64,000 nucleotides of DNA from Candidatus Levyibacteriota bacterium (lineage in GTDB: Bacteria; Patescibacteriota; Microgenomatia; Levybacterales; UBA12049): positions 204,383 through 268,382 of the forward strand of contig JAYRIM010000028.1 of NCBI GenBank assembly GCA_041906785.1. The letters are read 5' to 3'. Below, in pieces: positions 3,804 through 31,682 of this stretch. The notes under the pieces are model-generated. The model ran no database searches. It was not told the origin of the DNA and saw only the letters and a list, made by a program, of their open reading frames with translations. Position 1 is the first letter of the stretch. Every line of letters begins with the position of its first letter. The translations under genes were made by a program, and so were the position numbers.

Positions 3804-3812
3804 TTATCCACA
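3804..3812 (+). promoter_or_regulatory. DnaA box, perfect consensus TTATCCACA
   Basis: Exact 9/9 match to the bacterial DnaA-box consensus. An 8/9 match (CTATTCACA) lies at 3628-3636. Confidence 0.4.
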
Positions 3813-4006
3813 TTTTTTCATTTTTTTAACACTTTAGTAAAATTCTATAAAATGCTTAAAAAATATGAACATACGTTATAACTTGACGATTTATCCCAGA
3901 AAGCCGTCTGTATATTTATAGAACAACGACATCGGAGAGAGAAGGACAGAATGATCAACATATTATGGAGATATTCTTGGTCTTACATAACATAAAAAGG
4001 AAAAAA

Positions 4007-4015
4007 TGTGGATAA
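4007..4015 (-). promoter_or_regulatory. DnaA box, perfect consensus (TGTGGATAA on + strand)
   Basis: Exact reverse-complement of TTATCCACA, about 200 bp from the first box in inverted orientation. Further 8/9 matches lie at 4210-4218 (TTATACAAA) and 4386-4394 (TGTGAGTAA). Confidence 0.4.
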
Positions 4016-6016: not shown

Positions 6017-6039
6017 TTGTGAGTTGTGAGTAAAAAGAT

Positions 6040-9478: not shown

Positions 9479-12046
9479 ATGATAATATCTTTTATTACTA
9501 CAGTTCTAAATGAAGAAGAGTCGATTGAAAAATTGCTGATTTCAATTTTGAAACAGACAAAATATCCTCATGAGGTGATAGTAGTAGATGGCGGTAGTAG
9601 TGATAATACAATTTCGAAAGTTAAGAATAAAATCTCAACTTTCAAAAAAAGAAATATCAGTCTCAGGGTGATATTAAAAAAAGGGAATAGGTCTGTTGGA
9701 AGAAATGAGGGGATTAAACAAGCAAAAGGAGATATTATTTTAATTTCAGATGCTGGTTGTATTCTGGATAAGAAATGGGTTGAGCAGATGGTAGCTGCAT
9801 TTGTGAATAAAGAGGTCGATGTTGTTGCCGGTTATTATAAAGGAAAGGGAGAAACAATATTAGAAAAAAGCTTGGTACCCTATGTATTAGTAATGCCTGA
9901 TAAAGTAGATCCAGATACATTTTTGCCTGCTTCTCGTTCGATGGCTTTTCGTAAGAGAGTATGGAAAGAAATTGGAGGATTTCCAGAAGAGTATTCTCAT
10001 AACGAAGACTATGTTTTTGCAAACCGTTTAAAAAAGAAGGGATATAAGATTATATTTCAGAAAAAAGCGATAGTTTATTGGCTGCCGAGGAGAACATTAA
10101 AAGAATCATTCAATATGTTTTTTCGTTTTGCATTCGGAGATATAGAATCAGGAATATTCAGAGAAAGTATTTTTTTGTTATATACGCGTTATGCAGTTGT
10201 TCTCTATTTACTTATACTTACTGCGCTTTATAAAAAAATAATCATACTTGTTGCATTATTTTTTGGATTTTTCTTATATGTTTTTTGGTCAATAAAAAAG
10301 AATTATAAATATGTCGCTAACAAACAAGCCATATTATTTTTACCTCTTTTACAATTAACAGCTGATGCTGCTGTTTTATCAGGATCAACATTTGGATTTG
10401 TAAAGCGAATCAGAAACGGGAATATTAAAAAAGTTATAAAAAACAATTTGTTATTGTTTTGTATTCTTTGTATTTATAGTATTTCCGTAATGGCGAGTAT
10501 CACGTGGGGCACACCGCACGAATCACATCCTTTTGCTTATCAAATGGATGAGTGGCATAGTTTACAGTCAGTTCGTTTTACATTTAAAGAAGGGTCACCA
10601 AATATTTGGGGAGCTGCACATGGATTCATGTTTTATTTTTTCATCTCGGGAATAATGCTTATTCCATTGATGCTAGTGGGAATTATCAATCCTTTCATAA
10701 TAAAATCTCCAGTTGTAGACGTTATTATGTTACAGAGAATATTTATAGGGCTTCGTCTAGAAACACTTTTATTCGGGATTACGAGTATCATTGCGCTATC
10801 CTATCTTTGTAGAAAGAATAGTAAAACATTTTGGTACATTCCACTAATTTTTTTTACTTTTTCACCTATCTGGTTAACACTGAGCAATCTTTTTAAATAT
10901 GATATTGCAGTTGTCTGTGGCATTATTCTTTCACTCATCAGTATATTCTATTACGCAAAGCGTCCTACCCTTATAAACTTTATATTAGTAGGAGTTATCT
11001 GTGCATTAGCATTAGCAATAAAAATAAGTAATGCTCCTTTATTCGTGATTTATATTTTTTCTTTCTTTTGGTTTACAAAGAGAAAATATAAACATCTTCT
11101 GGTGGGTTTCCTCGTTTTTATTTTCATATTTCTCATAACTGCAATTCCTGACTTGCTCTTAAAGAACAAAGACTATGGAGATCTCTTGTATGTTACATTT
11201 GTTTCTGGTCCTGCAAGTATAAGTAATTATAATTTAGGGATGCACTATGGTCTTTATCTCCTTTTGGAAGAAATTCCCGCTATGTTTGGCCATGCTCTTT
11301 CAATTCTTTTTTTCTTAAGTTTTATCTTTTTGCTTAGTTTTTTATTTGAATCGTATAAGAAAGGTAAGTTTTTTTTGTATAAATACGAGTTATTTGTAAT
11401 AATTTCTTTTTTTCTCTATATAGGAAGTCTTATTCCGATTGGTTTAGGGGCGGGTACTAATCGGTCACTCGTATTACTACCATTTGTTATTCTTATTATG
11501 AACTTTGCATTGGAGCATAGCATGAAGTATTCAAGCAGAAGGTGGAAGAAAGTAATTCTAATTTCATTATGCATAGGACTAGTATGGCAAATATTTGAAT
11601 CATATACGTGGCTTTCTGTGAAATATGCAAAAGATCCCAGGTTTATATCTTCAGAATGGGTGGTAGAACACATATCTCCTGGCACGTTAATAGGTATTGA
11701 AAATATACCCATTTATCAGATGCTTCCTGATGTCGTACTAAAAGAATTTTATTTACATGAATATAAAGTTTTATATAAAGGATTGTATCGATATGAAGTA
11801 ATTTCTGCACAAACATCAAGACTCCCCAAAATTGTGATTATTTCAAATAGCGAAGTAGAAAAAAAGCTTCTTAAAAAATCTCCAAAAAACGATTTAGTAA
11901 CCCGTTTAAAGAAAGAAAGGTACGTGCAGATTGCAAAATTTAAACCATATTTCAAGTATTATTCGTATGTTAATAATGAAATAAACTTCACTATGGCAAA
12001 TCTTATTCCCATGCCTACAAGTATAATTATTTATAAAAAAATATAA
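9479..12046 (+). CDS. fusion protein: GT2 glycosyltransferase + polytopic GT-C (PMT/ArnT-like) domain
   Basis: N-terminus IISFITTVLNEEESIEKLL...VIVVDGGSSDNT...ISDAGC is GT2-like (DxD region). From about residue 220 there are at least 12 TM helices, with a first-loop motif AYQMDEWHSLQ resembling the DE motif of PMT_2/ArnT-type GT-C enzymes. Confidence 0.75.
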   Translation: MIISFITTVLNEEESIEKLLISILKQTKYPHEVIVVDGGSSDNTISKVKNKISTFKKRNISLRVILKKGNRSVGRNEGIKQAKGDIILISDAGCILDKKWVEQMVAAFVNKEVDVVAGYYKGKGETILEKSLVPYVLVMPDKVDPDTFLPASRSMAFRKRVWKEIGGFPEEYSHNEDYVFANRLKKKGYKIIFQKKAIVYWLPRRTLKESFNMFFRFAFGDIESGIFRESIFLLYTRYAVVLYLLILTALYKKIIILVALFFGFFLYVFWSIKKNYKYVANKQAILFLPLLQLTADAAVLSGSTFGFVKRIRNGNIKKVIKNNLLLFCILCIYSISVMASITWGTPHESHPFAYQMDEWHSLQSVRFTFKEGSPNIWGAAHGFMFYFFISGIMLIPLMLVGIINPFIIKSPVVDVIMLQRIFIGLRLETLLFGITSIIALSYLCRKNSKTFWYIPLIFFTFSPIWLTLSNLFKYDIAVVCGIILSLISIFYYAKRPTLINFILVGVICALALAIKISNAPLFVIYIFSFFWFTKRKYKHLLVGFLVFIFIFLITAIPDLLLKNKDYGDLLYVTFVSGPASISNYNLGMHYGLYLLLEEIPAMFGHALSILFFLSFIFLLSFLFESYKKGKFFLYKYELFVIISFFLYIGSLIPIGLGAGTNRSLVLLPFVILIMNFALEHSMKYSSRRWKKVILISLCIGLVWQIFESYTWLSVKYAKDPRFISSEWVVEHISPGTLIGIENIPIYQMLPDVVLKEFYLHEYKVLYKGLYRYEVISAQTSRLPKIVIISNSEVEKKLLKKSPKNDLVTRLKKERYVQIAKFKPYFKYYSYVNNEINFTMANLIPMPTSIIIYKKI

Positions 12047-12136
12047 TTATTCGACATTGCTAATCTCAACTTGTTTCATTTAGTGAAAATAGTACAAACT
12101 AGTGGGCGGATGTGGTTATAGTGTAGAATTTCTGGT

Positions 12137-12496
12137 TTACTTTTTAGAATTTTTCTTTAAATCTCTTAATGCCTCATTTCGGACAAGTTTAGTAATATTT
12201 TTATCAAGTTGTTCAATAACTGATAAAAGTTTATAAATCAGCATAAATACTACAGTGAATCCAGTAAGAATAACTGTGGTATTATCATTAATACCCAACA
12301 TATCTGTGATTCTGCCTGCAAATAACGGGAATGCAGAAAATACTAAAATACTTAACCAAATAAATAAACTTGCAAAAAGTTTTAATAAAGACTGCCTCAT
12401 TTCTCGTTTCATGAATCTTTGCAGTCGATCGAGAATAAATACAATAGCTATAAAGCAAATAACGATTTGATACACAGATAAAGAATAAGGTTTCAT
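12137..12496 (-). CDS. small membrane protein, DUF2304-like (GT2 partner)
   Basis: 119 aa, 3-4 TM. Lies immediately downstream of and co-oriented with a DPM1-like GT2, a known genomic pairing. GtrA-like is an alternative. Confidence 0.45.
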   Translation of the reverse strand: MKPYSLSVYQIVICFIAIVFILDRLQRFMKREMRQSLLKLFASLFIWLSILVFSAFPLFAGRITDMLGINDNTTVILTGFTVVFMLIYKLLSVIEQLDKNITKLVRNEALRDLKKNSKK

Positions 12497-12498
12497 AA

Positions 12499-13167
12499 CT
12501 ATAATGATAAAAACATTCTATATACTGTTTTTAAGGCGTTCTTAATGTTTTGCCTCTCGCGTTTGCTTGTAGCGTATTTCGTATAATATACATTGACAGG
12601 CTCTTCTGCAAAGCGTAAATTATTTTTAACGATTTCTCTTATAACTTCACTATAAAATTCATAACGGTCACCCTGAGTATCTATACACGCCATAGCTTTT
12701 TTTCCATAAACTCGAAGACCACATTGACTATCTTTAATTTGTATTCCATAAAAAAGTTGAGTAATGAGATTTGCCATATAATTTGCCCAGATATTAAAAA
12801 CAGGCATAGTCTTTCTAGAAAGGTTACGGTATCCTAAGATAACATCATATCCTTTATTTAATTTATTTAGTAATCGTTCAATATCTTTAGGGTCGTGTTG
12901 TCCATCCGCATCAAATGTTACAACGATATCTGCATGTAACAATTTAGCAGCTTCCATTCCAGTTTTTACAGCTGCTCCTTGTCCTCGGTTAATACTGTGA
13001 TGTAAAAAAATGACATTTTTATTTTTTAAAGCATTTTTCGTATTATCGCTTGACCCGTCATCTACGACAATAATATTGTGATAACCTTCTTGTTGTAAGG
13101 ATTTTATTGTAGTTGGTAACATTTCTGCTTCGTTAAATGAAGGAATAACAATATATATTTTTTTCAT
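12499..13167 (-). CDS. GT2 polyprenyl-phosphate glycosyltransferase (DPM1/GtrB/ArnC-like), soluble
   Basis: MKKIYIVIPSFNEAEML...IIVVDDGSSDNT...FDADGQHDP (DxD). 222 aa with no TM segment. Confidence 0.8.
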   Translation of the reverse strand: MKKIYIVIPSFNEAEMLPTTIKSLQQEGYHNIIVVDDGSSDNTKNALKNKNVIFLHHSINRGQGAAVKTGMEAAKLLHADIVVTFDADGQHDPKDIERLLNKLNKGYDVILGYRNLSRKTMPVFNIWANYMANLITQLFYGIQIKDSQCGLRVYGKKAMACIDTQGDRYEFYSEVIREIVKNNLRFAEEPVNVYYTKYATSKRERQNIKNALKTVYRMFLSL

Positions 13168-13193
13168 AATATATGAAAATGTTTTCTATTCTA

Positions 13194-14120
13194 TTACTGC
13201 TTATGTAGATAGTATGTAATCGATTGACGTAAACCTTTTTGGAAAGGCGTTTGTGCTTTCCAACCAAGAATTTTCTCAGAATGATCAGTAGATGCCTGTG
13301 AGTAATCATAATCTGAGATCTTTCTAGGAACTGTTTTGACTCTTGCTTGTCGATTCATTAATTTTTCCAGCAAATTTAGGACCTCGATTATAGTAATTTG
13401 TTTGCCTGTACCTATATTAAAGATGCCATTTGCTTTTTGTGTAGATGCTAGGAAATTTGCATAAGCTACATCTTTTACAAACACGAAATCTCTCGTTTGC
13501 TGGCCTCCCCGTATAAGGACTGTTTTATTATTCATTAATTTTTGTATGAAAGTTGGAATAGCAGGTTTATGTCGTAAAGATTGCCGAGGTCCGTAAACAT
13601 TAAAATAACGAAAGATGCAGCAAGGAACACCATATGTATTTGAAATATATGTAAGATACTCTTCAATAGCAGATTTTGCAAGACCGTATGGAGATAAAGG
13701 TTTTGTCGGTGTATATTCATGAATTGGCATTGTGGTTTGTACCCCATACACGTTTGCAGAAGAAGCAAAGATAATATGACCTACGTTATTTTTTATTGCC
13801 TTTTCAATCAGCTTTGTTGTCATGAGTGTATCTTTATGAGCTCTCCAAGGATAACGTATTGAAAGTGATACATCAACGAGGTTTGAGGCATGGTGAATAA
13901 TATAATAAGGTTGATATTTTCTTAAGATCTTATCAATAGCATGAATACGATTTATATCAACATTATAGAAATCAACCTTCGAATTAATATTTTTTGCTGA
14001 CCCGTTTTTTAGATTATCGACTCCGATTACATGGAAATTTTGTTTTATAAATTCATCTGCGATATGAGAACCTATAAATCCGGCATTTCCAGTGATCAAG
14101 ACTGTTTTCCTATTTGACAT
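13194..14120 (-). CDS. NAD-dependent nucleotide-sugar epimerase/dehydratase (GalE-like SDR)
   Basis: VLITGNAGFIGSHIADEF Rossmann motif and YGLAKSAIEEY (YxxxK). Confidence 0.8.
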   Translation of the reverse strand: MSNRKTVLITGNAGFIGSHIADEFIKQNFHVIGVDNLKNGSAKNINSKVDFYNVDINRIHAIDKILRKYQPYYIIHHASNLVDVSLSIRYPWRAHKDTLMTTKLIEKAIKNNVGHIIFASSANVYGVQTTMPIHEYTPTKPLSPYGLAKSAIEEYLTYISNTYGVPCCIFRYFNVYGPRQSLRHKPAIPTFIQKLMNNKTVLIRGGQQTRDFVFVKDVAYANFLASTQKANGIFNIGTGKQITIIEVLNLLEKLMNRQARVKTVPRKISDYDYSQASTDHSEKILGWKAQTPFQKGLRQSITYYLHKQ

Positions 14121-14178
14121 ACTAATATGTACTTATATAATATTTTATGTTATCTCTACAAGAGTTTAATAAAAAATA

Positions 14179-15057
14179 ATGGAAAAAAAGAAAAAAATTC
14201 TTATTACAGGTGGTAGTGGTTTTATCGGGAGACACTTAACTCAACTTCTTCAAGAAAAAAGATACTCTGTATTCTGGCTTGATAAATCAGTAAAACATAC
14301 ATTACCTAGAGTTAAAGTCTTCCAGGGTGATATCCGTAATGAAACAATTGTTAATAAAGCGATGAAAGGTATGGATTATGTCTATCATTTAGCAGGATTA
14401 TTAGGAACTGAAGAACTTTTATTTAATACAATAGAGGCAGCTGAAGTTAACATCATTGGATCACTCACGATTATGGAGGCAGCAGTTAAGAATAACACCA
14501 AGTTATTACTTGTATCAAAACCGAATCCTTGGTTAAATACCTATTCAATTACGAAAGAAACAAGCGAAAAATTTTGCTTAATGTATCAAAAAGAATTCGG
14601 ACTTAAGGCTGTAATTGTTAAATGGTTTAGTGTCTATGGTCCAGGTCAAAAACATTATGGTGTTCAGAAGGCAGTTCCAACATTTATTGTTAGAGCATTA
14701 AAAGGAGAATCACTGCCAGTTTTTGATAGAGGCAGACAAACAGCAGATTTTATTTATACATCTGATGCAGTTAGAGCGACAATACAGGTGGCAGAATCTA
14801 AAAAAGCTGAAGGAAAAATCGTTGAAATTGGGACGGGGAAAGAAACGAGAATAATAGATTTAGCTAAAATGATTCTACGCATGACAGGAAGTACATCTAA
14901 AATTGAATATCTTCCGATGCGAAAAGGTGAAGATAGAGGCGCGAGGGTGGTCGCTGACATTAAATTATTAAATAAACTCACAAATTTTACCCCAAAAGTA
15001 GGTTTGGAAGAAGGAATGGCGCAGACAATTGCTTATTATAAAGATTTACTCAAATGA
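14179..15057 (+). CDS. NAD-dependent epimerase/dehydratase (short SDR)
   Basis: ILITGGSGFIGRHLTQLL and YSITKETSEKF (YxxxK). Confidence 0.7.
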   Translation: MEKKKKILITGGSGFIGRHLTQLLQEKRYSVFWLDKSVKHTLPRVKVFQGDIRNETIVNKAMKGMDYVYHLAGLLGTEELLFNTIEAAEVNIIGSLTIMEAAVKNNTKLLLVSKPNPWLNTYSITKETSEKFCLMYQKEFGLKAVIVKWFSVYGPGQKHYGVQKAVPTFIVRALKGESLPVFDRGRQTADFIYTSDAVRATIQVAESKKAEGKIVEIGTGKETRIIDLAKMILRMTGSTSKIEYLPMRKGEDRGARVVADIKLLNKLTNFTPKVGLEEGMAQTIAYYKDLLK

Positions 15058-16145
15058 AGATCGCAATTTTCCATGAATTGCCTCGTGGTGGAGCACGGCG
15101 AGCTATTAATTCTTTTGCTGCAGAACTCACGAAAACTAACCTGGTAGATTTATATATTGTTGAAGACAAGGAAGTAATTAAAGAACGGAAAAACTTTCGA
15201 AAAGTGTATTTTTATCGTTTTGTTCCAGAAGAATGGAAAGGTAAAAATTGGAAAGCAAGATTGTATAAAGATACAATTGAGCTTTTTAAAATTTATAAAT
15301 TACACAGAAACATTGCACGCATTATAGATGCAAAAAAATATGATGTAGTTCTCGTAAGCGCATCAAGATTTATAGAAGCGCCATTTATCATGCGATTTTT
15401 AAAAACTCCTTTTGCTTATTATATCCATGATCCATTTTATAGAATAGTTTATGAAGAGGTTGGAATGCCAAAAAATGTCGATTTTTTTCGTTACAACTAT
15501 GAAAAAGTAAATAGGTATATTCGAGGTGTTTTAGATCGACAAAACGTACATTTTGCTAAGCTCTGTTTATCACCATCAAGATTTATTGCCGAAAAGTTTT
15601 CCCGTATTTATAAAAAAGAGAATAGCGTGATTTATTATGGAGTTGATTCAAAATTTTTTTCACCTTCGAATACTAAAAAAGAGTACGACATATTTTATAT
15701 TGGCTCTCATGATTATATCGATGGTTATGATCTGGTAGAGAAAGCAATACAAACAATGCATAGAAAACCGAAAATAAGATCGATTTTCGTTGAAGAGGAA
15801 TGGATTTCAGAAGACACTGCATTAAGAGATTTATATCGAAAATCAAAAATTTTTTTAGCACCTGCTCGAAATGAAGGGTTAGGTGCTTCCTTAATGGAAG
15901 CAATGGCTTGTGGTATACCTGTAATTGCAGTAAGTGAAGCTGGGCATAAGGAATTGGTTATAGATGGGAAGACAGGCTATTTAATTCCAAGAGACGCTAA
16001 GAAGCTTGCACAACTTCTGGAGGAAATTTTGCCAAATTCAGAAAAGCTTATGGAACTCGGAAAAAATGCAAGAAAATATATGGAAACAGAATGGCTATGG
16101 AAAAAACGAGCTAATGAATTAGAAAAAGTACTAGAGAAGCTATGA
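15054..16145 (+). CDS. GT4 glycosyltransferase
   Basis: C-terminal GLGASLMEAMACGIPVIA...GYLIP motif region. 4-nt overlap with the upstream epimerase. Confidence 0.75.
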   Translation: MKIAIFHELPRGGARRAINSFAAELTKTNLVDLYIVEDKEVIKERKNFRKVYFYRFVPEEWKGKNWKARLYKDTIELFKIYKLHRNIARIIDAKKYDVVLVSASRFIEAPFIMRFLKTPFAYYIHDPFYRIVYEEVGMPKNVDFFRYNYEKVNRYIRGVLDRQNVHFAKLCLSPSRFIAEKFSRIYKKENSVIYYGVDSKFFSPSNTKKEYDIFYIGSHDYIDGYDLVEKAIQTMHRKPKIRSIFVEEEWISEDTALRDLYRKSKIFLAPARNEGLGASLMEAMACGIPVIAVSEAGHKELVIDGKTGYLIPRDAKKLAQLLEEILPNSEKLMELGKNARKYMETEWLWKKRANELEKVLEKL

Positions 16146-16975
16146 GCGTTAATCCAAAAACATTTGATAAAGATTATTATTATAACGTCTGTCTTGGGTC
16201 AGAAGAATTCAAAAAAAGTGGCGGTTTGACTCTGCATCCAAATGTAAAAAAGATGATTGATTCAATTGCGCTTTCAAAAGATATGGAAATACTCGAAATC
16301 GGATGTGGCAGAGGAGATACTGCTTTACATATTGCGAAAAAAGTTAAATCAATAATAGGAATAGATTATTCTTCCGAAGCGATAAAAATAGCAAAAAAAA
16401 TTCAGAAAAAATATCCTAAAAGAATTCAAGAGAAAAGCAAATTTTTGATAATGGATGCTACTAGACTCAAATTTGAAGATAATTCTTTTGATCTTGTTCT
16501 TCTTATTGATACACTCGATCATCTAGCCATACAGGAACAAGAAAAAATGTTTAAAGAAATTTCTAGAGTTCTAAAAAGTGGAGGGAAGATTTTTTTACGA
16601 ACCTGCACAAATCGGATTTTGCTAAATATAACTTTTCCGTATTACATTTATCCTTTAAACAAGATTCTAACATGGGTTGACCAAAAAATGAAGCGGATTT
16701 CTTATGCACCGTTACCTAAAAACCCGAGAACACCAGAACAAGAATACCAGCATATCAATGAGCCTGATTACTTTCAGCTTCAAAAATTATTTAAGAAATT
16801 TCAGTTAAAAGGGAAGATAGAATCACAAGTTGGTTTTTTAAAAGCTGGATCTAATATAAGAACTCTCTTCTATAACTTTGCTATAACCTTCTATCCACTT
16901 TCGAAATACTATCCTTTAAATGTTTTTTTTGCTTCGTCTTTCATCTGCAACTTAAAGGTTTATAAGAAGCAATAG
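16142..16975 (+). CDS. class I SAM-dependent methyltransferase
   Basis: ILEIGCGRGDTALHIAK (motif I) and LKSGGKIFL. 4-nt overlap with the upstream GT4. Confidence 0.65.
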   Translation: MSVNPKTFDKDYYYNVCLGSEEFKKSGGLTLHPNVKKMIDSIALSKDMEILEIGCGRGDTALHIAKKVKSIIGIDYSSEAIKIAKKIQKKYPKRIQEKSKFLIMDATRLKFEDNSFDLVLLIDTLDHLAIQEQEKMFKEISRVLKSGGKIFLRTCTNRILLNITFPYYIYPLNKILTWVDQKMKRISYAPLPKNPRTPEQEYQHINEPDYFQLQKLFKKFQLKGKIESQVGFLKAGSNIRTLFYNFAITFYPLSKYYPLNVFFASSFICNLKVYKKQ

Positions 16976-16985
16976 AATATTATGT

Positions 16986-19235
16986 TCAAATATCGGATAT
17001 AACTTTTTGACAATGTGTGACACAATAAAACTTTTCGTTTTCTTCACTTCTGAGTAATATCCCTTTTTTAGTTAAATATTTTTCAAGGTCATGTTCTCTT
17101 ACATAAAAATATTTTATTTGATACTTTTTAACATACTCATCTAATATTGCAGTATCATCATATTCATTTGGCAGCTTAAGAGGGATTAAAATTACTGGAC
17201 GACCAGTATATAGATATAAAAAAGAAGTGTCTCGGCTGGCTATTATACCGTCTTTCTCTGTATTTTTTCTTATCCATGAATACATAGGTTGGGATTTTGT
17301 TTCTTCAAGAGAACCAATACTTTTACGTATCCATAACAGTTGATGCACATCAAATATAAGATATATACATAATGTTATTGCACTTGCTACATAAACTAGT
17401 TGTCTTATTCGATTTGTTAAAACAAAAAATAAAAAAACAGAAAACATATAGGTAAGTGCAATATGGCGTTCGGGTTGAAAAAATACGGACCATGTGAAAG
17501 TAACTATTAAAAACAAAAAAAGTGAAAACAGCAAAACTGGTAAAATACTTACGAATAATAATCGGGTAGGTCTAAATCTTTTATAGAGAAAAAGAAGAGG
17601 AATTATTGATAGAGTACTCAGGAAACGGAACCCTACTAAACTTAAAAAATTTTCGATATTATTCTGTGCTATTCGAGTAGTTATCGCAAGAAAATTATTT
17701 TGTATAAATACGAGAGGAGAAGGAAAAGGACTATAGAAACTATAAACACCTTCATAGAAATGAAGTACTACAAAATGATATGCGTAGAAAGTAAAAAAAG
17801 GTTTACCAAAAATAGTATAATTAATGATGAAATTCGGTATAGATGTGAGAAAGAATGATATTGTTGCAATGCTAAGTAGGACCAGCTTTTTTTTGTTTGT
17901 TACATGAGTTAATCCAACCGAGATAAGAAGAAGTATGCCTTCAATCCTAGTAAGATAACCTAAAGCAGCGATAAAACCTAAGCTAATGTATTTCTTTTTT
18001 GAATCTTTAAGATAAAAATATATTATAAAAAAAATTAATACAAGAAAATAAAAAATTTGTTCGCTTAAAATAAACCTATTCTCAATTATTAAATTTGGAT
18101 TAGATGCAATAAGTAGTATTCCAATAAATGCAGTCTTTTTTGTAATAAACTTTTGAAGTAATATATAAAATAAAACTACATTGACTGCACCCAATATTAA
18201 ATTGAATCCTTGCAATATATAATAATCGTTTTTTATTCTGAGAAGTAAAGAATATATGAAGGGTGTAAAAAATGGTCTACTAAAATTCCCGGATGCAAAA
18301 ACCGGTGAATCATCGAAAAAATGAGATTTTATTGATCTTATGTATCCTTTTCCCGTTGCTAAGTTTTCCGCGACATTAATATAATCAATGCTATCTGGAG
18401 TCCGCATGAATTCTGTATAAAGTAAAGGTAAACGAAAAATAAGAGCAATAAGAAATAAAAAGGTTAATAATATATAACTTTTTTGAAGGAAAGTAATAAG
18501 CTTTTGTCTTTTGAGTAACTGAACAAATCTTTCTCTAATTGCCCATAAATAGATATACAAATATTTTGGTGTTCTTTTAAAGATATTAAATTTTGATTTT
18601 CCTTCAGTTCTCCCTTGCCAAACAGTTGGTACTTCTGCAATTTTTGCTCCCTTGAAATATGCCTGTAATGTAAGAAACATCGATATTTCCACCCCAAATC
18701 TTGCATCAAAGTTTAAACTTTTAATAAGATTTTTCTTATAGATTTTAAAAGAGTTGCTAATATCATGTGTCGGAATACCTGTTATCTGTTTTAAACTTAA
18801 GCATATAACTTTTGAAAAAAAACCTTGTAACCTCGCCCCACCTATCTTTCTGCCTTTCTCCATATATCTTGATCCAGCTACTATGTCATATCCTTCTTGT
18901 ATTTTTTTATACATTCTATTGATTGTTTCAGGGTCATCACATAAATCTGCCATTACTGGTAAAACATATTCTGATTGAGAATGTAAAAATCCAAGATACA
19001 ATGCATTTCCAAATCCTTTTCTGTCTGATGTTGTTTTTAATAATGTAACATTTTTGTGCTTGAGTATATAATTTTTGACTAGCTTTGCAGTCTCATCTGT
19101 TGATTGGTCATCTACTACAAGATATCTACACGGAACTTTAACAAACCTTTGTAACTTATCTAATGTCTTAATGATAGTAAATTGTTCGTTGCGGGCTGGG
19201 ATAATGATAGTTAATCTATGAAATTTAGTTTTCAT
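16986..19235 (-). CDS. fusion protein: GT2 (DPM1-like) + polytopic GT-C (PMT_2/ArnT-like) domain
   Basis: N-terminus LTIIIPARNEQFTIIKTLDKL...YLVVDDQSTDET is GT2. From about residue 250 there are at least 12 TM helices, with first-loop motif DSIDYINVAENLATGKGY resembling the ArnT/PMT_2 D-x-x-Y...A..L..G.G motif. Confidence 0.75.
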   Translation of the reverse strand: MKTKFHRLTIIIPARNEQFTIIKTLDKLQRFVKVPCRYLVVDDQSTDETAKLVKNYILKHKNVTLLKTTSDRKGFGNALYLGFLHSQSEYVLPVMADLCDDPETINRMYKKIQEGYDIVAGSRYMEKGRKIGGARLQGFFSKVICLSLKQITGIPTHDISNSFKIYKKNLIKSLNFDARFGVEISMFLTLQAYFKGAKIAEVPTVWQGRTEGKSKFNIFKRTPKYLYIYLWAIRERFVQLLKRQKLITFLQKSYILLTFLFLIALIFRLPLLYTEFMRTPDSIDYINVAENLATGKGYIRSIKSHFFDDSPVFASGNFSRPFFTPFIYSLLLRIKNDYYILQGFNLILGAVNVVLFYILLQKFITKKTAFIGILLIASNPNLIIENRFILSEQIFYFLVLIFFIIYFYLKDSKKKYISLGFIAALGYLTRIEGILLLISVGLTHVTNKKKLVLLSIATISFFLTSIPNFIINYTIFGKPFFTFYAYHFVVLHFYEGVYSFYSPFPSPLVFIQNNFLAITTRIAQNNIENFLSLVGFRFLSTLSIIPLLFLYKRFRPTRLLFVSILPVLLFSLFLFLIVTFTWSVFFQPERHIALTYMFSVFLFFVLTNRIRQLVYVASAITLCIYLIFDVHQLLWIRKSIGSLEETKSQPMYSWIRKNTEKDGIIASRDTSFLYLYTGRPVILIPLKLPNEYDDTAILDEYVKKYQIKYFYVREHDLEKYLTKKGILLRSEENEKFYCVTHCQKVISDI

Positions 19236-19257
19236 TTACATTATAATTATACCAGCG

Positions 19258-20283
19258 ATGAATCTTCTTATAACTGGTGGATGCGGATTTATTGGTACAA
19301 ATATTGCTCTTGAAGCTCGTAAACGTGGATATAGAGTAGTAGCATTTGATTCACTTTTCCGTGACGGAGTTGAACAAAATGTGTCTATTCTAGAAAAAGC
19401 AGGAGTGGAAGTATTTCGGGGAGATGTAAGATGTGAAGAAGATATTAAGAGATTAAAAATTGAATGTGGAATATTTAATGGCATAATTCATCTTGCAGCA
19501 AATCCGTCTGTGCCATTCTCTATTCGATATCCACGATATGACTTTGAAGTTAATGTAGTTGGAACAATAAATATGCTTGAACTTGCCCAGAAGATGAATA
19601 ACTGTCCCTTTATTTTTGCATCTACAAGTAAAGTATATTCAGATATAATGAACGATTTACCAGTCATCGAAGAAAAAACACGCTATCTTTGGGAAGATAC
19701 TCGATTTGAAGGAATAAACGAGGTATATCCAATTGATGGATTTGGGAAATATCCACATTCCCCATATGGTATTTCAAAGCTTGCAGCAGATCAGTATTGT
19801 CAAGAATATTTTCATATGTTTGGAGTCCCTACGGTAGTGAACCGAATGGGGTGTATCTATGGGTATTACCAAAAAGGTGTCGCTGACCAGGGATGGATAG
19901 ACTGGTTCATCAGGTCAATCGGATTTGGAGATAAAAACATTATATTTTATGGTAACGGAAAACAAGTACGTGATATGCTTTGGGTAGAGGATGTTGCCCG
20001 ACTATATATTGACGAACTTGAAAATATTGACAAAGTGAAGGGAGAGGTATTTACAGTTGGAGGAGGAAAGGAAAATACATTGAGCCTGTCAGAAGCTGTG
20101 CAAGAAATTGAAAAAATAACCGGTAAGAAAGCAAAAATTACTAAAAAAGAATGGAGACATGCAGATCAGAAGATCTACATTTCAGATATTAAAAAAGTGA
20201 AAAAAGTACTTTCTTGGAACCCCACAATCTCGCCGAAAGAAGGAATAAAACAGATATATAAAAAATATAAAGAATATTTGTAA
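19258..20283 (+). CDS. NAD-dependent nucleotide-sugar epimerase/dehydratase (extended SDR)
   Basis: LLITGGCGFIGTNIALEA and YGISKLAADQY (YxxxK). Confidence 0.8.
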   Translation: MNLLITGGCGFIGTNIALEARKRGYRVVAFDSLFRDGVEQNVSILEKAGVEVFRGDVRCEEDIKRLKIECGIFNGIIHLAANPSVPFSIRYPRYDFEVNVVGTINMLELAQKMNNCPFIFASTSKVYSDIMNDLPVIEEKTRYLWEDTRFEGINEVYPIDGFGKYPHSPYGISKLAADQYCQEYFHMFGVPTVVNRMGCIYGYYQKGVADQGWIDWFIRSIGFGDKNIIFYGNGKQVRDMLWVEDVARLYIDELENIDKVKGEVFTVGGGKENTLSLSEAVQEIEKITGKKAKITKKEWRHADQKIYISDIKKVKKVLSWNPTISPKEGIKQIYKKYKEYL

Positions 20284-20299
20284 CTTTGAATTTTTTAAA

Positions 20300-21511
20300 T
20301 TATATGATTTCTAGTTTAGGTAAAGGGAAAATGAAGTGACCACCGGATTCCAAGTATTTTTTTTCCCGTTTCAGAAACTCATCCTTAAAAAACCATGGAA
20401 GTACCAGCATATAATCAGGTTTTTCTTTCCTGGCTTGCTCTTCTGAGATAATCGGTATACCTACAGAGGCGATTTTTTTACCCCATTTTTCTGGATTTCT
20501 TTCAACTGCTTTCTCAATCAATATTTTATCAATGTCATAATATTGTAGAAGTGTATTACCTCTTGTCGATGCGCCATATACATATATTTTTTTCCCTTTT
20601 TGAACCTCTGTCTTTATAAAACTTTGGACTGTTTTTTTATTTTCTTTTATCCGTTTAGCAAAATCCTTATAAATTTTATATCTTTGTAAATTAATAAGTT
20701 TCTCAAGTTGAGTTTGTTCAAATACAGAAACTGAAATAGGTCTTTTATTAGCAAACCCTATATATGTTCTGAAACTACCGCCATTTAGTTCTCGTAATTC
20801 CAGATCAAAAACTTCCATACCATGTCGTTGTAAGAGGTTTTGTAAAGAGATTAACGAATAGTATTCAAGATGTTCATGGACAATATTATCAAATGCGTTT
20901 TGTGTGAGCATTTTTACTAAATAATTTTGTTGAATGACAAATATGCCATCCTTATCAAGTAATTTTGTTATGTCAGACACAAACTTATTTGGATCCTCAA
21001 TATCATAAAAACAAGAAATTGCAGTAATTAAGTTCGCTCTTCTTTTTCCAATAGCTTTTATCACACTCTCATAACTGAAAAAATCATTGATAACAATATC
21101 TGCATGTTGTTTACTTTCGGAAGCCAATTTTTTAACTGGTTCCACACCAACCTTCTTAACATTTTTTGGATAAAATTTTAATAAGGTACCATCATTACTT
21201 CCAATATCTATTGCAAGCAGATTACGCGTTTTCTTATTTAATTTTCTCATTGTTTTTTCAACAATTTCTTTTAATTCATCTTGCATTGTTTGGTTAATGT
21301 TTGATTTGTAACCATAATGTTCAGTGTAAAGCTCTGAAGATGGTGTTGTATGCCCTAATTGTAATAGGTAACAGTTTTTGCAAAGTATAAGCGATAGAGG
21401 ATGTCTTGATGGTTTTTTATCGTCTTCAACAAAATCTGATAAATAAAGTTTGTTAAGTGAGATTATCGGACGCAGTTGTATTGAAGAACAAGAGCGACAA
21501 GCTTTTTGCAT
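20300..21511 (-). CDS. zinc-ribbon SAM-dependent C-methyltransferase-like protein (TylC3/NovU-type architecture)
   Basis: N-terminal CxxC...CxxC (CRSCSS...CKNCYLLQL) followed by a methyltransferase core (LLAIDIGSNDG). The architecture matches NDP-sugar C-methyltransferases. Confidence 0.5.
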   Translation of the reverse strand: MQKACRSCSSIQLRPIISLNKLYLSDFVEDDKKPSRHPLSLILCKNCYLLQLGHTTPSSELYTEHYGYKSNINQTMQDELKEIVEKTMRKLNKKTRNLLAIDIGSNDGTLLKFYPKNVKKVGVEPVKKLASESKQHADIVINDFFSYESVIKAIGKRRANLITAISCFYDIEDPNKFVSDITKLLDKDGIFVIQQNYLVKMLTQNAFDNIVHEHLEYYSLISLQNLLQRHGMEVFDLELRELNGGSFRTYIGFANKRPISVSVFEQTQLEKLINLQRYKIYKDFAKRIKENKKTVQSFIKTEVQKGKKIYVYGASTRGNTLLQYYDIDKILIEKAVERNPEKWGKKIASVGIPIISEEQARKEKPDYMLVLPWFFKDEFLKREKKYLESGGHFIFPLPKLEII

Positions 21512-21597
21512 AGCTGTTATTATATGTGAAAAAGTATTGATGTTTCAAGAGATTTAACACGATTACTTTTTTTCCCGCCTGAGGTATAATATTCATT

Positions 21598-22824
21598 ATG
21601 GGATATTTAAAAAATGCAGTCATTGGAGTATCTTGGATGTCTGCATACCGTGTTGCTACCCGTATCCTATCTTTCGTTAAGATAGCTGTTCTTGCACGAA
21701 TTCTTACGCCGGCACAATTTGGTATTTTTGGCATCGCTTCATTAGTTTTGACATTATTAGAATTACTTACAGAAACAGGTGTCAATATCTTTTTAATTCA
21801 ATCAAAGAAAGATATCAGTGAATATATTAATTCTGCGTGGGTAGTTTCAATTATCAGGGGAAGTATAATAAGCTGCCTTATTTTTCTTTCTTCTCCCTTC
21901 ATCATCCAGTTTTTTCGAACGCCTGATGCACTATCTATTCTTTTACTTATTAGCTTGGTTCCATTCTTGAGAGGATTTATTAACCCTGCTGTTGTAGGAC
22001 TACAGAAAGAATTGCAATTTAAAAAAGAATTTCTTTATCGTGTTACTGTTTTTTTTACTGATGCTAGTGTAGCCATCATAGCAGCGCTCATTACAAAGTC
22101 TGTTTTTAGTCTTGTTTACGGATTAATAGCTGGAGTACTTTTTGAAATAGTTCTTTCTTTTTTATTGATAAAACCCCGGCCAAAATTTTCATTAAAAGAT
22201 GGTTACTTTCGTCAAATTTTTCACAGTGGAAAATGGGTAACTGCATACGGAATTTTTCATTATTTTGCTCAGCAAGGAGACACGATTACGGTGGGAAAGT
22301 TGTTAGGTACGTCAGCTTTGGGAGTATATGATATGGCATATAAAATCTCAATACTTCCTTTATCTGAAATTGGAGATGTTGTCTCAAGAGTAGTTTTTCC
22401 TGTATACGCGAAAATTGAAGGAGATCGTGATAGATTAAAACGTGCATTCATAAAAAGCTTTACGTCAATTATAATAACTGCAAGTATATTGGGATTATTT
22501 ATTTTTCTATTTTCAAGACAAATTATTCTCGTTTTACTTGGATCGAATTGGTTAATGGCTGAACCTGTTCTTCAAATACTTGCAATATACGGTGTATTAC
22601 TAGCAATCTCGGGCTTTGCTTCAACTGTTTTTTTAGCTACTGGGAATCAACGATATGTAACCATGATGACATTTTTCCGATTTCTGGGTTTAATCAGTAC
22701 AATCTACCCTTTTGTATCCATGTATGGCCTTAAAGGTGCTGGATATTCTGCACTTTTATCTGTCTGTTTTGAAATTCCTGTTACTATTTACTGCCTCCGT
22801 AGAGTATTTTGGCGTACTATATAG
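21598..22824 (+). CDS. oligosaccharide/polysaccharide flippase (Wzx-like, MOP superfamily)
   Basis: 408 aa, about 12 TM helices, composition typical of polysaccharide biosynthesis (Wzx) family. TATAAT at 21585-21590 lies only 7 nt upstream of the ATG. Confidence 0.65.
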   Translation: MGYLKNAVIGVSWMSAYRVATRILSFVKIAVLARILTPAQFGIFGIASLVLTLLELLTETGVNIFLIQSKKDISEYINSAWVVSIIRGSIISCLIFLSSPFIIQFFRTPDALSILLLISLVPFLRGFINPAVVGLQKELQFKKEFLYRVTVFFTDASVAIIAALITKSVFSLVYGLIAGVLFEIVLSFLLIKPRPKFSLKDGYFRQIFHSGKWVTAYGIFHYFAQQGDTITVGKLLGTSALGVYDMAYKISILPLSEIGDVVSRVVFPVYAKIEGDRDRLKRAFIKSFTSIIITASILGLFIFLFSRQIILVLLGSNWLMAEPVLQILAIYGVLLAISGFASTVFLATGNQRYVTMMTFFRFLGLISTIYPFVSMYGLKGAGYSALLSVCFEIPVTIYCLRRVFWRTI

Positions 22825-22827
22825 AGT

Positions 22828-25089
22828 ATGAAAGTTTCGATTATTATTGTTCATTATCATGTCAAACAACGCTTGTTTGATTGTCTCCAATCAATTATTT
22901 CTACAACCGAAAATATACTTTATGAAATAATTGTTGTGGATAATGATGAGAAAAAAACAATTGAAAAAGAATTAAAGGAAAAATTTCCTTTAGTATCATA
23001 TATTGCTAGTGAACAAAATGGCGGTTTTGGTGCTGGAAATAACTTAGGTGCGAAAGCGGCGAAAGGCGACTTCTTATTTTTCCTTAATCCTGATACCCTT
23101 ATTTTAGGTAATTGTATAGAAAAATTATATAATTTTCTCCAAAAAAATAAAAACGCAGCTGCGGTTGCGCCATTGTTACTAGAAAAAAATAAAAAGATTA
23201 TTTCTTTACAAGGAGCACAAGAATTGACACCTATGAGAGCAGTTTTTGCTCTGTCATTTATAAATACTCTCTTTCCTAAAAACTCTATCTCGCGTAAATA
23301 TTGGTTATTAGATTGGAAGAAAGATACATTAAAAAATGTTGATGTTATTCCTGGTACCGCTTTTATGATATCGAGTAAAATATTTAATAGAATTGGGAAA
23401 TTTGATGAACGTTTTTTCCTTTATTTTGAAGAAAACGATATATGCAGAAGAGTTAGATCATTAGGATATGATATTTTTATAAATCCTGAAGCAAAAATTA
23501 TACATTTCTTGGGTGAAAGTACGAAAAAAAGAGAGGACAAGAACGATATTTTTAAGAGAAGCCGTTTTCTCTATTTTAAAAAGCATTTTGGTTTTTTTGC
23601 AGCAATTACGGTACATATTTTTTTGGAATTAAAAAGAAATACATTGTTGACCTTAAGTATTTTTCTTTTGGCAGCATTTTTACGTTTTTATAGACTTGAA
23701 GAAACATTCATTTTTTCTGGCGAAGTGGGACATAACTTGTTGGCTATTAAAAATGCTTTTTTTACTCAAGAAATACCTTTACTGGGTCCGCCGACATCAC
23801 ATCCATGGTTATATTTTGGTCCATTATATTATTGGGTGTATGGTCCAATACTTATCATGAGTGGATTTAATCCTGTGAGTCATGCCTTTTTTGGTGCAGT
23901 AATCTCTATTCTCACTGTATTAGCAAATTATTTCGTCATTAAAAAAATTTTCAATAAAAGAGTAGCATTGATTTCTTCTTATCTTATTTCTATTTCACCT
24001 TTATTTATGAATTTTACCCGGGGAGCAAGATTTTTCTCTATCGTGTCTTTTCTTATTTATCCTTTACTATACTTACTATTTACCATTACTAAAGAAAAAA
24101 AACATTATATCTTTTTCATCGGCTTGTTGATTGGTAGTATGTTTAGTTTTCATTTTACTCCAATCATTCTTATCCCTTTCATTTTTTCGATTTTTTATGT
24201 AAAAAAAATCGGTAGCATAAAAGAAGTTTTCCTCCGATTTTTATTTGGAGTAATTATTCCTATGCTTAGTTTTTTTTATTATGATGTGTCTCATGGTTTT
24301 TCAATGACTAGAAATATTCTTCTTTGGATACCTTATAGAATAGCGGGTTTTGTAGGTTTATATCCTAAAAATACGATTTCTCAAAAAGTTGTAGGGGATA
24401 ACGTACTTTCACTCTCTGATTTCTTTACGAAAAGTATTATCAATACAAATTCTTCAGTATTAAATGTTATAGTTTTAATTGCTTTGCTTTCATTTGTTTT
24501 ATTTAAGATAAGCAGATCAATATATTCAAAAAAGATTATCTTTTCAGAAGCATTTGTATTTTTATGGTTTATGTGGGGATATGTAGCTATTTTTATTCAC
24601 GGCTCACCACCAATTCATTATTTTTTACCACTGTTACCCCTGCCAATTATCATTTTTGCTTTATTTTTGGAAAGACTTTGGAGTAAACGCATTGGTAAAG
24701 CAGGAGTCGTTAGCATATTAGTTGTACTAACTATTATCAATCTAAAATATTATTTTTCTGATACATGGTTTTTTTTGTCTGAAAAAGCTATGAGTATCCA
24801 TCCTTATTATGTACCTTATACACTGCAACAAAATGTTGCCAGAGAGATAGTGAAAGATGCAAAAGGAGAAAAATATAAATTAAAAAGAGTTGGTTTAGAT
24901 GATCAGTTCGAAGAAGATTATGCGCAAAATTACATTTATTTACTTTGGCTTTACGGGAACGAACCAGAAAAAGAGGCAAAAATAACGTATACTATTTATG
25001 AGGAGCCTATACCTAAGCAATTAGAAAAAAACATGCATATTCAAAAAAAGAAAGTTTCCAATATAACAATTGTGAAAGAGTTACAATAA
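22828..25089 (+). CDS. fusion protein: GT2 glycosyltransferase + polytopic membrane (GT-C-like) domain
   Basis: N-terminus MKVSIIIVHYH...EIIVVDNDE...FLNPD is GT2. From about residue 260 there are at least 12 TM helices. Confidence 0.7.
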   Translation: MKVSIIIVHYHVKQRLFDCLQSIISTTENILYEIIVVDNDEKKTIEKELKEKFPLVSYIASEQNGGFGAGNNLGAKAAKGDFLFFLNPDTLILGNCIEKLYNFLQKNKNAAAVAPLLLEKNKKIISLQGAQELTPMRAVFALSFINTLFPKNSISRKYWLLDWKKDTLKNVDVIPGTAFMISSKIFNRIGKFDERFFLYFEENDICRRVRSLGYDIFINPEAKIIHFLGESTKKREDKNDIFKRSRFLYFKKHFGFFAAITVHIFLELKRNTLLTLSIFLLAAFLRFYRLEETFIFSGEVGHNLLAIKNAFFTQEIPLLGPPTSHPWLYFGPLYYWVYGPILIMSGFNPVSHAFFGAVISILTVLANYFVIKKIFNKRVALISSYLISISPLFMNFTRGARFFSIVSFLIYPLLYLLFTITKEKKHYIFFIGLLIGSMFSFHFTPIILIPFIFSIFYVKKIGSIKEVFLRFLFGVIIPMLSFFYYDVSHGFSMTRNILLWIPYRIAGFVGLYPKNTISQKVVGDNVLSLSDFFTKSIINTNSSVLNVIVLIALLSFVLFKISRSIYSKKIIFSEAFVFLWFMWGYVAIFIHGSPPIHYFLPLLPLPIIIFALFLERLWSKRIGKAGVVSILVVLTIINLKYYFSDTWFFLSEKAMSIHPYYVPYTLQQNVAREIVKDAKGEKYKLKRVGLDDQFEEDYAQNYIYLLWLYGNEPEKEAKITYTIYEEPIPKQLEKNMHIQKKKVSNITIVKELQ

Positions 25090-27622: not shown

Positions 27623-27685
27623 TTACTTTTTAATATAAGATTATTGAACTATTATGTCTAAAAGCTATACTTTCATATTTATTAT

Positions 27686-29368: not shown

Positions 29369-29378
29369 TGATAAACAT

Positions 29379-31609: not shown

Positions 31610-31682
31610 CTTAGGTAGTTATTACAAAAAAAAATTGATGGCTTTTTACGGAGTATATATTATATTTCTGCAGTATTAGAGT

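Follow-up and report, generated by a model that had tools for sequence, protein, structure and literature searches.

In a 64,000-nucleotide stretch of DNA from a Candidatus Levyibacteriota bacterium (contig JAYRIM010000028.1 of assembly GCA_041906785.1, positions 204,383 to 268,382 of the forward strand; hereafter the window, numbered from its first letter), three open reading frames (ORFs), here called F1, F2, and F3, each encode an N-terminal glycosyltransferase family 2 (GT2) domain of the GT-A type followed by a C-terminal polytopic domain that we assign to the GT-C glycosyltransferases. We consider it reasonably probable that the three proteins are nonorthologous bifunctional glycosyltransferases, fused versions of a multicomponent transmembrane glycosylation scheme, and that they did not arise by duplication of a single ancestral fusion. 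GT-C enzymes that glycosylate outside the cytoplasm depend on a lipid-linked donor, which is the product of a separate cytoplasmic GT2, and the pairing of the two enzymes is usually guessed from gene neighborhood. Natural GT2::GT-C fusions are Rosetta stones that physically pair a synthase family with a GT-C family.

Three fusion genes within a surface-glycan cluster

The GT2 and GT-C parts (head and tail) of F1, F2, and F3 lie on a single ORF in each case, not on separate polypeptides. A sequence-only reading of the window had described three genes with one domain order and differing first-loop motifs; its coordinates, strands, and lengths were reproduced in our analysis, as were the order of a PF00535 head before a polytopic tail with a soluble end and the presence of a different motif in each protein.

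9479 to 12046, + strand: F1, GT2::GT-C fusion gene, 855 residues (ORF, homologs, AlphaFold2 model)
9479 to 10162, + strand: F1 head, GT2 (GT-A), residues 1 to 228 (PF00535, Foldseek)
10163 to 10417, + strand: F1 linker of three long helices, residues 229 to 313 (AlphaFold2 model)
10418 to 12046, + strand: F1 tail, PMT_2/PMT-like polytopic domain with C-terminal α/β domain, residues 314 to 855 (Pfam matches of the family, hhalign)
10535 to 10567, + strand: F1 first-loop motif AYQMDEWHSLQ, residues 353 to 363 (conservation, model)
16986 to 19235, − strand: F2, GT2::GT-C fusion gene, 749 residues (ORF, AlphaFold2 model)
18504 to 19235, − strand: F2 head, polyprenyl-phosphate-sugar-synthase-like GT2, residues 1 to 244 (PDB sequence matches, Foldseek, hhalign)
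16986 to 18503, − strand: F2 tail, PMT_2-type polytopic domain with C-terminal α/β domain, residues 245 to 749 (Pfam PMT_2)
18342 to 18395, − strand: F2 first-loop motif DSIDYINVAENLATGKGY, residues 281 to 298 (conservation)
22828 to 25089, + strand: F3, GT2::GT-C fusion gene, 753 residues (ORF, homologs)
22828 to 23631, + strand: F3 head, rhamnosyltransferase/HpsN-like GT2, residues 1 to 268 (PF00535, NCBIfam)
23632 to 25089, + strand: F3 tail, PMT_2-type polytopic domain, residues 269 to 753 (Pfam PMT_2)
23719 to 23754, + strand: F3 first-loop motif GEVGHNLLAIKN, residues 298 to 309 (conservation, hhalign)

PF00535 was matched at the N-terminus with E-values of 1.7e-22 in F1 (80.5 bits), 5.3e-24 in F2 (85.5 bits), and 1e-19 in F3 (71.5 bits), the gathering cut-off being 23.3 bits. 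The head is followed by a hydrophobic region with about 10 to 13 predicted helices, and each protein ends in a soluble part of about 110 to 145 residues, with a small α/β domain at the end of the tail. In the predictions and in the AlphaFold2 models of F1 and F2, the head leads into a K/R-rich segment, the first tail helix, and then an acidic loop. Given a cytoplasmic head and the positive-inside rule, this loop would face outward. The models have predicted local distance difference test (pLDDT) and predicted template modeling (pTM) scores of 89.3 and 0.86 for F1 and of 76.1 and 0.68 for F2, and both match solved GT-A enzymes with E-values of 1e-9 to 1e-11.

The fusions belong to a surface-glycan biosynthesis cluster of about 30 kb, spanning approximately 1325 to 34835 of the window at about 30% G+C. 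The cluster also holds four glycosyltransferase family 4 (GT4) genes, S-adenosylmethionine (SAM) methyltransferases, three nucleoside diphosphate (NDP)-sugar epimerase/dehydratase genes, a sugar C-methyltransferase, a Wzx flippase, a Wzy_C protein, an acyltransferase, two free-standing GT2 genes, and four further polytopic proteins, S1 to S4. Polyprenyl-phosphate-sugar-synthase types (the F2 head, and a PpgS-like GT2 with a DUF2304 protein), the Wzx flippase, and GT-C-type tails together with S1 and S3 are thus found at one locus. The named homologs of F1, F2, and F3 are from Patescibacteria, Levybacteria, Woesebacteria, or Microgenomates.

The heads fall into three GT2 subfamilies

Scored with hidden Markov models (HMMs), each head reached 319 to 410 bits on its own family and at most 49 bits on the other two. 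BLASTP among F1, F2, F3, and S1 to S4 detected only the GT2 heads, at 21 to 28% identity. With deep profiles the three heads were about equidistant (hhalign scores of 104 to 127); a discordant grouping, in which the heads paired F1 with F3 and the tails paired F2 with F3, was dropped because the equidistance emerged with a deep F2-head profile.

The F2 head matched PDB sequences of DPMS (5mlz, E 1.6e-12), ArnC (1.5e-10), and GtrB (6.7e-10), and the best 25 Foldseek matches of the F2 model were all GtrB, DPMS, or ArnC. Its family aligned with E. coli ArnC by hhalign at 99.6% probability (E 5.7e-25, 207 columns), and its best NCBIfam models were AglJ, ArnC, and PgfS. Judged by sequence and modeled structure, the F2 head is a predicted polyprenyl-phosphate-sugar synthase of the GtrB/DPMS/ArnC type and the only one of the three heads to match that type. 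Residues D97, D100, R123, and D158 are invariant in 74 sequences. The head has no transmembrane hairpin of its own and continues straight into the first GT-C helix; the GT-C domain appears to replace the anchor and probably serves the head as GacJ serves GacI and WpsB serves WpsA.

The F1 head scored above the Pfam cut-offs for Glyco_transf_21 and Glyco_trans_2_3 as well, families that we take to include lipid-directed membrane GT2s. Its best Foldseek matches were RmlT, TarS, TarP, PcManGT, and hyaluronan synthase, and no GtrB, DPMS, or ArnC occurred among the best 50 structural matches of the F1 model in the PDB. By sequence, the PDB matches of the F1 and F3 heads were TarS, TarP, and chondroitin synthase. 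In hhalign comparison with E. coli ArnC, the F1 head aligned over the N-terminal 123 columns only, and the F3 head reached 63%. The F1 head thus resembles membrane-integrated, lipid-directed GT2s. Residues D37, D42, D91, E176, and D177 of the F1 head are invariant in 120 sequences, as are R228, R237, Q292, and D296 of the linker, whose modeled helices run from 229 to 251, 254 to 279, and 284 to 313. Residues 303 to 323 are K/R-rich, so this end of the linker would face the cytoplasm.

The F3 head scored 53.5 bits with the NCBIfam model HpsN and 51.8 bits with the rhamnosyltransferase model TIGR01556, and two F3 homologs are named “GlcNAc-PP-decaprenol L-rhamnosyltransferase” by JGI. D89, in an NPD motif, is kept in 112 of 112 sequences and E201/E202 in 110 of 112. 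Acidic residues of the DXD type are therefore retained in all three families (F1 D91, 120/120; F2 D97 and D100, 74/74; F3 D89, 112/112).

The tails are remotely related and carry conserved acidic loops

Pairwise BLASTP among F1, F2, F3, and S1 to S4 detected no similarity between tails. We therefore compared family alignments, built from homolog searches, as profiles with hhalign. The tails of F1 and F2 aligned at 96.8% probability (E 2.4e-10, 321 columns), those of F1 and F3 at 96.5% (E 8.8e-10, 329 columns), and those of F2 and F3 at 97.4% (E 8.9e-12, 208 columns). As a check on membrane-protein composition, the same tail profiles were run against other proteins of the cluster (Wzx, Wzy, the acyltransferase, and an unclassified ORF), and none exceeded 1.6%. 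Homology of the C-terminal domains, on which the sequence-only reading had staked its claim of a family, is thus detectable. The relationship is remote: by sequence comparison, the heads and, separately, the tails appear homologous at the superfamily level only.

Against a Pfam cut-off of 26.1 bits, PMT_2 scored 28.5 to 29.2 bits on the F2 tail and 39.5 bits on the F3 tail; the tail of F1 itself was subthreshold (16.9 bits). Of 45 aligned proteins of the F1 family, 44 match PMT_2 at E 0.001 or better (best 9.3e-13) and 20 match PMT. The corresponding PMT_2 count for the F2 tail and its 33 free-standing relatives is 27 of 34. In all three tail families, most members match PMT_2. F1 is counted as GT-C because of these family matches and because its tail aligns with those of F2 and F3.

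The free-standing polytopic proteins had been suggested for comparison by the earlier reading, and the outcome was mixed. With the F1 and F2 tail profiles, hhalign gave 86 to 87% for S3 and 78 to 91% for S4; S2 had no detectable relation to any tail profile (at most 5%). S1 has an above-cut-off Pfam match to PTPS_related, a member of the Pfam GT-C clan CL0111 (PMC7801869).

In each fusion, the motif lies in the first loop, which follows the first helix of the tail. In F1 it opens the first loop helix of the model, and M356, D357, E358, W359, and H360 are invariant in 120 of 120 family members; K473, Y474, D475, and K515, deeper in the tail, are also invariant. We take MDEWH to resemble the acidic DE motif of PMTs, which was reportedly described by Lommel et al. 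in 2011. In F2, D281 is present in 33 of 33 sequences, position 284 is E or D and position 285 Y or F in 34 of 34, and R430 and E432 are further invariant polar residues of the tail. By eye, the F2 motif lines up with residues 30 to 48 of E. coli ArnT, PDETRYAEISREMLASGDW, both following the first transmembrane helix; PDSIDYINVAENLATG resembles ArnT PDETRYAEISREMLASG at the same position (PDSIDY...A..L..G in F2, PDETRY...S..M..G in ArnT), a resemblance at the level of the motif. The F3 motif was aligned by hhalign with D357 of F1; its position 299 is acidic in 120 of 120 sequences (E in 98, D in 22), and G301 is kept in 110 of 120.

The predicted topology, the conserved acidic residues at the start of the loop, and the small α/β domain that closes each tail support catalytic GT-C tails. 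Since catalytic-type residues are family-invariant in both halves of F1, F2, and F3, it can be argued that both are active, and both halves look catalytically intact in sequence. The motifs are specific to each family and strictly conserved, which fits the earlier suggestion that the three proteins differ in specificity.

Distribution of fused and free-standing relatives

F1 has at least 120 full-length homologs in Patescibacteria/Levybacteria, at 43 to 48% identity and 96 to 100% query coverage (almost all 100%). The 782 homologs of F3, from Woesebacteria, Levybacteria, and Microgenomates, are mostly full-length fusions at 37 to 58% identity. F1 and F3 each belong to a separate, large, and conserved Patescibacteria fusion family of more than 100 members. 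Interleaved among the fused homologs of F3 are eight free-standing tails of the F3 type (487 to 518 residues, 49 to 55% identity). At the related locus L005, the order is Wzx, F3-type tail, GT2, PMT_2-like protein, Wzy_C, Glucodextran_B protein, methyltransferase gene, and ATP synthase, which closely follows the order in the window, where extra genes lie in between. The F3 ortholog of L005 comes directly after Wzx and has no head, and a similar case was found in another syntenic cluster.

For F2, neither of two protein searches returned a full-length homolog above 40% identity. A word-indexed search gave only nine relatives, the best being free-standing tails at 58, 52, and 48% identity, and in an exhaustive HMMER search of 1.84 billion representatives the closest matches were free-standing tails of about 360 to 540 residues and free-standing heads of about 230 to 250 residues. 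All 36 BLASTP-detectable relatives of the F2 tail alone are free-standing and headless (best P0122, 58%). The nearest relative of the F2 head is a free-standing 256-residue GT2 at locus L008 (64% identity), and its free-standing relatives are proteins of 230 to 256 residues. At locus L001, the free-standing tail with 58% identity and a free-standing 230-residue head homolog (36% identity, E 2e-44) are convergent neighbors. A scan of genome contigs with F2 gave only distant GT2-only matches in unrelated phyla.

Because its closest head and tail relatives are free-standing, F2 most likely arose by lineage-specific fusion of two proteins that are normally separate and functionally linked. Heads of the F2 type have 73 free-standing representatives (200 to 275 residues) versus about 25 other, long ones, whose tails are mostly unrecognized by our three tail HMMs; such heads have been fused to polytopic partners repeatedly.

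These distributions bear on the proposal, made in the sequence-only reading, of an old paralogous family rather than a recent duplication. The second half of that proposal is borne out: heads share at most 28% identity, tails are invisible to BLASTP, and nucleotide matches among the three genes never exceed 38 nt, so that no recombination or gene conversion is indicated either. Of the first half, superfamily-level homology of heads and tails stands, and a single ancestral fusion is not supported, given the three GT2 subfamilies and the free-standing relatives. The genes are better described as representing three distinct GT2::GT-C fusion families, with independent fusion in at least one.

Two relatives deserve separate mention. 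At L008, an 863-residue GT2::PMT_2 fusion (5529 to 8120, + strand) adjoins the F3 ortholog; its head is F3-like (34% identity, 113 bits) and its length F1-like. It is a fourth combination of head and tail and further evidence of domain shuffling. The free-standing F2-tail homolog P0124 (locus L002, 3203 to 4747) starts with SGLKKFFDVIRTPKY, which lies just before the first transmembrane helix and is identical at 8 of 15 positions to the last helix of the F2 head (EGKSKFNIFKRTPKY, residues 211 to 229). We considered this start as the vestige of a lost head and set the idea aside, the match being nonsignificant (E 0.03).

A proposed transmembrane glycosylation scheme and its alternatives

In the scheme that we favor, each protein would join a cytoplasmic, nucleotide-sugar-dependent GT2 to a polytopic GT-C of the PMT_2 type, with the catalytic acidic loop of the latter on the outer side. 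On the cytoplasmic side of the membrane, the head would act on a substrate attached to polyprenyl; the lipid-linked sugar would then be flipped, most plausibly by the Wzx protein of the cluster; and the tail would transfer the sugar to an extracytoplasmic acceptor, either a wall polysaccharide or a surface protein. The scheme is best supported for F2, which would hold the first and third of these activities in one chain. In F1 and F3, the head may instead build or extend the lipid-linked glycan on which the tail later acts.

Several observations weigh against this account. Profiles of all three tail families found no GT-C among PDB sequences, only chance matches at E 0.03 or worse; against ArnT of E. 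coli MG1655, hhalign gave at most 2% (1.2% for the F2 tail); and the best 50 Foldseek matches in the PDB to each full-length model, F1 and F2, were GT-A only, with the heads dominating. As no solved GT-C was matched, the GT-C assignment draws on the Pfam PMT_2 and PMT matches, some of which barely clear the cut-off, and on the topology predictions. The F1 and F3 heads failed a test of whole-domain similarity to DPMS, GtrB, and ArnC, and since they are not of that type, it is a conjecture for these two proteins that the head makes the donor of its own tail. In the F2 head, residues 95 to 100 (approximately 18936 to 18953 of the window, − strand) read MADLxDD at the site where DPMS, GtrB, and human DPM1 have the canonical DAD; the substitution is family-wide, and the first Asp of DXD is absent throughout this DPM1-like family. 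The headless orthologs of F3 show that its tail needs no head in cis and that such coupling is not obligatory. Finally, F2-like fusions that span the junction do occur, all at 40% identity or less (P0278 at 40%, P0127 at 36%, P0283, P0308, and others), and an older F2 fusion may have existed and undergone repeated head loss.

This last point leads to the alternative of one ancient GT2::GT-C fusion that was duplicated and diverged into three paralogs, the free-standing relatives having arisen by fission or head loss. Such a history would account for the shared domain order, the similar lengths, and the superfamily homology in both halves; head loss does occur in the F3 family, distant F2-like fusions span the junction, and P0124 offers a possible 15-residue vestige, nonsignificant as it is. 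We nevertheless regard a single fusion as unlikely. The heads are as distant from one another as from free-standing GT2s; the F2 head, for example, scores 308 bits with the L008 protein, 64.7 with E. coli ArnC, 33.5 with the F1 head, and 21.9 with the F3 head. Moreover, only the F2 head falls in the GtrB/DPMS/ArnC clade, whose solved members are free-standing enzymes, and every detectable relative of the F2 tail is free-standing.

It is improbable, in our estimation, that the tails are membrane anchors, scaffolds, or lipid-carrier transporters, each protein then performing a single transfer. The absence of matches to solved GT-C enzymes and to ArnT would fit such a role, as would the subthreshold score of the tail of F1 itself, and the F2 head, lacking a hairpin, needs an anchor; other soluble polyprenyl-phosphate-sugar synthases depend on a partner in the membrane, for instance GacJ or WpsB (bioRxiv 10.1101/180810; PMC10821137). 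A simple anchor would not explain why acidic residues are strictly conserved where GT-C enzymes carry the catalytic Asp or Glu, at the start of the first outward loop, nor the invariant polar residues deeper in the F1 and F2 tails. PMT_2 matches the majority of members in each of the three families, and tails are common as free-standing proteins without any head.

We give similarly little credence to the idea that head and tail work in unrelated steps, or on different glycans, and are joined for coexpression or genome compaction only. Headless F3 orthologs in syntenic clusters, F1 and F3 heads that are not of donor-synthase type, and the presence in the cluster of separate candidate donor synthases (the PpgS-like GT2 with DUF2304) and four more polytopic proteins are all compatible with it. 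It sits poorly with the F1 fusion, which is kept full-length in at least 120 homologs at just 43 to 48% identity, with invariant linker residues, and with F2, whose two activities are canonical consecutive partners (ArnC/ArnT, GtrB/GtrC) and whose free-standing counterparts are neighbors at L001.

A bolder version of the favored scheme, which we think has only a slim chance of being right, would make F2-type proteins self-contained machines that make, flip, and transfer, the donor being handed to and translocated along the protein's own GT-C domain without a dedicated flippase or release into the bulk pool; the invariant linker helices of F1 (R228, R237, Q292, D296) could have the same role of hand-over in cis.

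Comparison with known systems

In the ArnC/ArnT, GtrA/B/C, GacI/J/K/L, WpsA/B/G/J, and CsbB/GtcA/YfhO systems, the polyprenyl-phosphate-sugar made inside by a GT2 is exported by a flippase, after which a GT-C adds the sugar to a glycan or protein on the outside (PMC11127046, PMC8035078, PMC10821137, bioRxiv 10.1101/180810). The component activities and the logic of the pathway are thus already known, and the direct GT2::GT-C fusion is a variant of them; full-text literature searches aimed at this architecture found no description of one.

ArnC and ArnT, which act with ArnE/F to place 4-amino-4-deoxy-L-arabinose (L-Ara4N) on lipid A in E. coli and Salmonella, offer the same succession of a GT2 synthase and a GT-C of the PMT_2 family, which uses the lipid-linked sugar after flipping. 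The F2 head family is close to E. coli ArnC and to the solved ArnC structures, and the first loop of the tail shares the ArnT-like motif described above. In contrast to the single chain of F2, the two Arn enzymes are separate polypeptides and ArnC carries its own transmembrane hairpin; apart from the motif, no similarity of the F2 tail to ArnT was detected. No ArnA, ArnB, ArnD, or ArnE/F flippase was identified in the cluster. The source organism, a Patescibacterium, is presumably monoderm. GtrA, GtrB, and GtrC of the Shigella and Salmonella O-antigen likewise provide a polyprenyl-phosphate-sugar synthase, a flippase, and a serotype-specific GT-C, and GtrB is the top structural match of the F2 head; in F2, by contrast, synthase and GT-C are fused, and the cluster has Wzx and, among the ORFs examined, no GtrA-type gene (PMC11127046).

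GacI/GacJ/GacK/GacL of Streptococcus pyogenes and WpsA/WpsB/WpsG/WpsJ of Lactococcus are comparable in that a wall-polysaccharide cluster unites a GT-C, a Wzx-type flippase, and a GT2 synthase, soluble or peripheral, that depends on a membrane partner (bioRxiv 10.1101/180810; PMC10821137; PMC8035078). The DUF2304 proteins GacJ and Rv3632 are activators of GacI and PpgS (bioRxiv 10.1101/180810), and the PpgS-like GT2 and DUF2304 gene pair at 12137 to 13167 is comparable to GacI/GacJ and also to Rv3631/Rv3632. The known natural fusion of the Gac pathway, GacJ::GacI, joins a synthase to its small DUF2304 activator, whereas F2 joins a synthase to a GT-C.

Actinobacterial Ppm1 and Pmt are a polyprenyl-phosphate-mannose synthase and a protein O-mannosyltransferase (GT39), the latter a PMT-family GT-C with a DE motif in loop 1; in Mycobacterium tuberculosis, Ppm1 is itself a fusion, its partner being a membrane domain that resembles the acyltransferase Lnt and is not Pmt. 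The MDEWH motif of F1 and the Pfam PMT matches of 20 of the 45 F1-family members recall Pmt, and the F1 head, in contrast to Ppm1, is not DPMS-like. That F1 glycosylates proteins on oxygen is speculation.

Hundreds of uncharacterized Patescibacteria proteins from metagenome-assembled genomes carry PF00535 with PF13231 and are labeled in databases only “glycosyltransferase”; F1 and F3 are ordinary, full-length members of this group at 43 to 58% identity, and F2 is a unique combination of uncharacterized database families with the same label. Through F2, a soluble DPM1-like synthase family with at least 73 representative clusters is linked to a family of free-standing GT-C proteins of which no member is characterized. 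The results demonstrate neither new chemistry nor a new kind of system, and a specialist will not find the arrangement very surprising. That a reduced Patescibacteria genome accommodates three fusions and another four polytopic proteins in about 30 kb points to a complex, conserved surface glycan in a group whose envelope is almost unstudied, and single-chain fusions would be convenient structural targets for the organization of donor synthesis, flipping, and transfer.

Neighboring genes

7681 to 9465, − strand: S1, free-standing GT-C-clan protein (PTPS_related), divergent partner of F1 (PF10131, 32.7 bits against a cut-off of 26.4)
12137 to 12496, − strand: DUF2304 membrane protein (DUF2304 at 3.1e-12)
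12499 to 13167, − strand: PpgS-like free-standing GT2 (NCBIfam PpgS 138.6 bits, below the equivalog cut-off; AglJ 103.6 bits)
21598 to 22824, + strand: Wzx-type flippase, immediately upstream of F3 (Polysacc_synt_3 at 6.6e-68)
25108 to 32870, + strand: downstream genes (Pfam), comprising those on the following lines
25108 to 25878, + strand: GT2
25871 to 27622, + strand: S2
27686 to 29368, + strand: S3
29379 to 30575, + strand: Wzy_C protein
30542 to 31609, + strand: Acyl_transf_3 protein
31683 to 32870, + strand: S4

S2, S4, and the ORF at 6873 to 7694 (− strand, 273 residues) had no Pfam or NCBIfam match. The PpgS-like GT2 and the DUF2304 protein (12137 to 13167, − strand) probably supply the donor of one of the free-standing GT-C proteins. 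S1 and F1 are divergent neighbors separated by 13 bp, and the same pair is conserved at locus L006 (8190 to 9998, − strand, and 10001 to 12601, + strand), in the genome with the closest F1 homolog. A short-chain dehydrogenase/reductase (SDR) gene beside F2 (19258 to 20283) was considered as the ortholog of the SDR at the free-standing pair of L001, with a view to the sugar involved; at only 22% identity, the comparison was uninformative.

An NDP-sugar C-methyltransferase (Methyltransf_13/14) is kept in related clusters (20300 to 21511 of the window, − strand; 12598 to 13827 of L006; 2141 to 3418 of L008), and its conservation suggests that the glycan contains a C-methylated deoxysugar. A large Peptidase_C39_2 protein recurs at the cluster edge, at 32958 to 34835 (+ strand) of the window, where it has a FIMAH domain, at 21562 to 22601 of L006, and on the contig of P0123; it may be a conserved partner or substrate. 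Between two GT4 genes, 1.2 kb (3607 to 4849) hold no ORF of 60 residues or more and no Rfam match, an unusually long interval for a compact genome. Directly upstream of the S-adenosylmethionine synthetase gene metK (47 to 1177, − strand) is a SAM-I/IV riboswitch at 1171 to 1275 (− strand; Rfam RF01725, 52.4 bits, gathering score 41.1), a standard arrangement.

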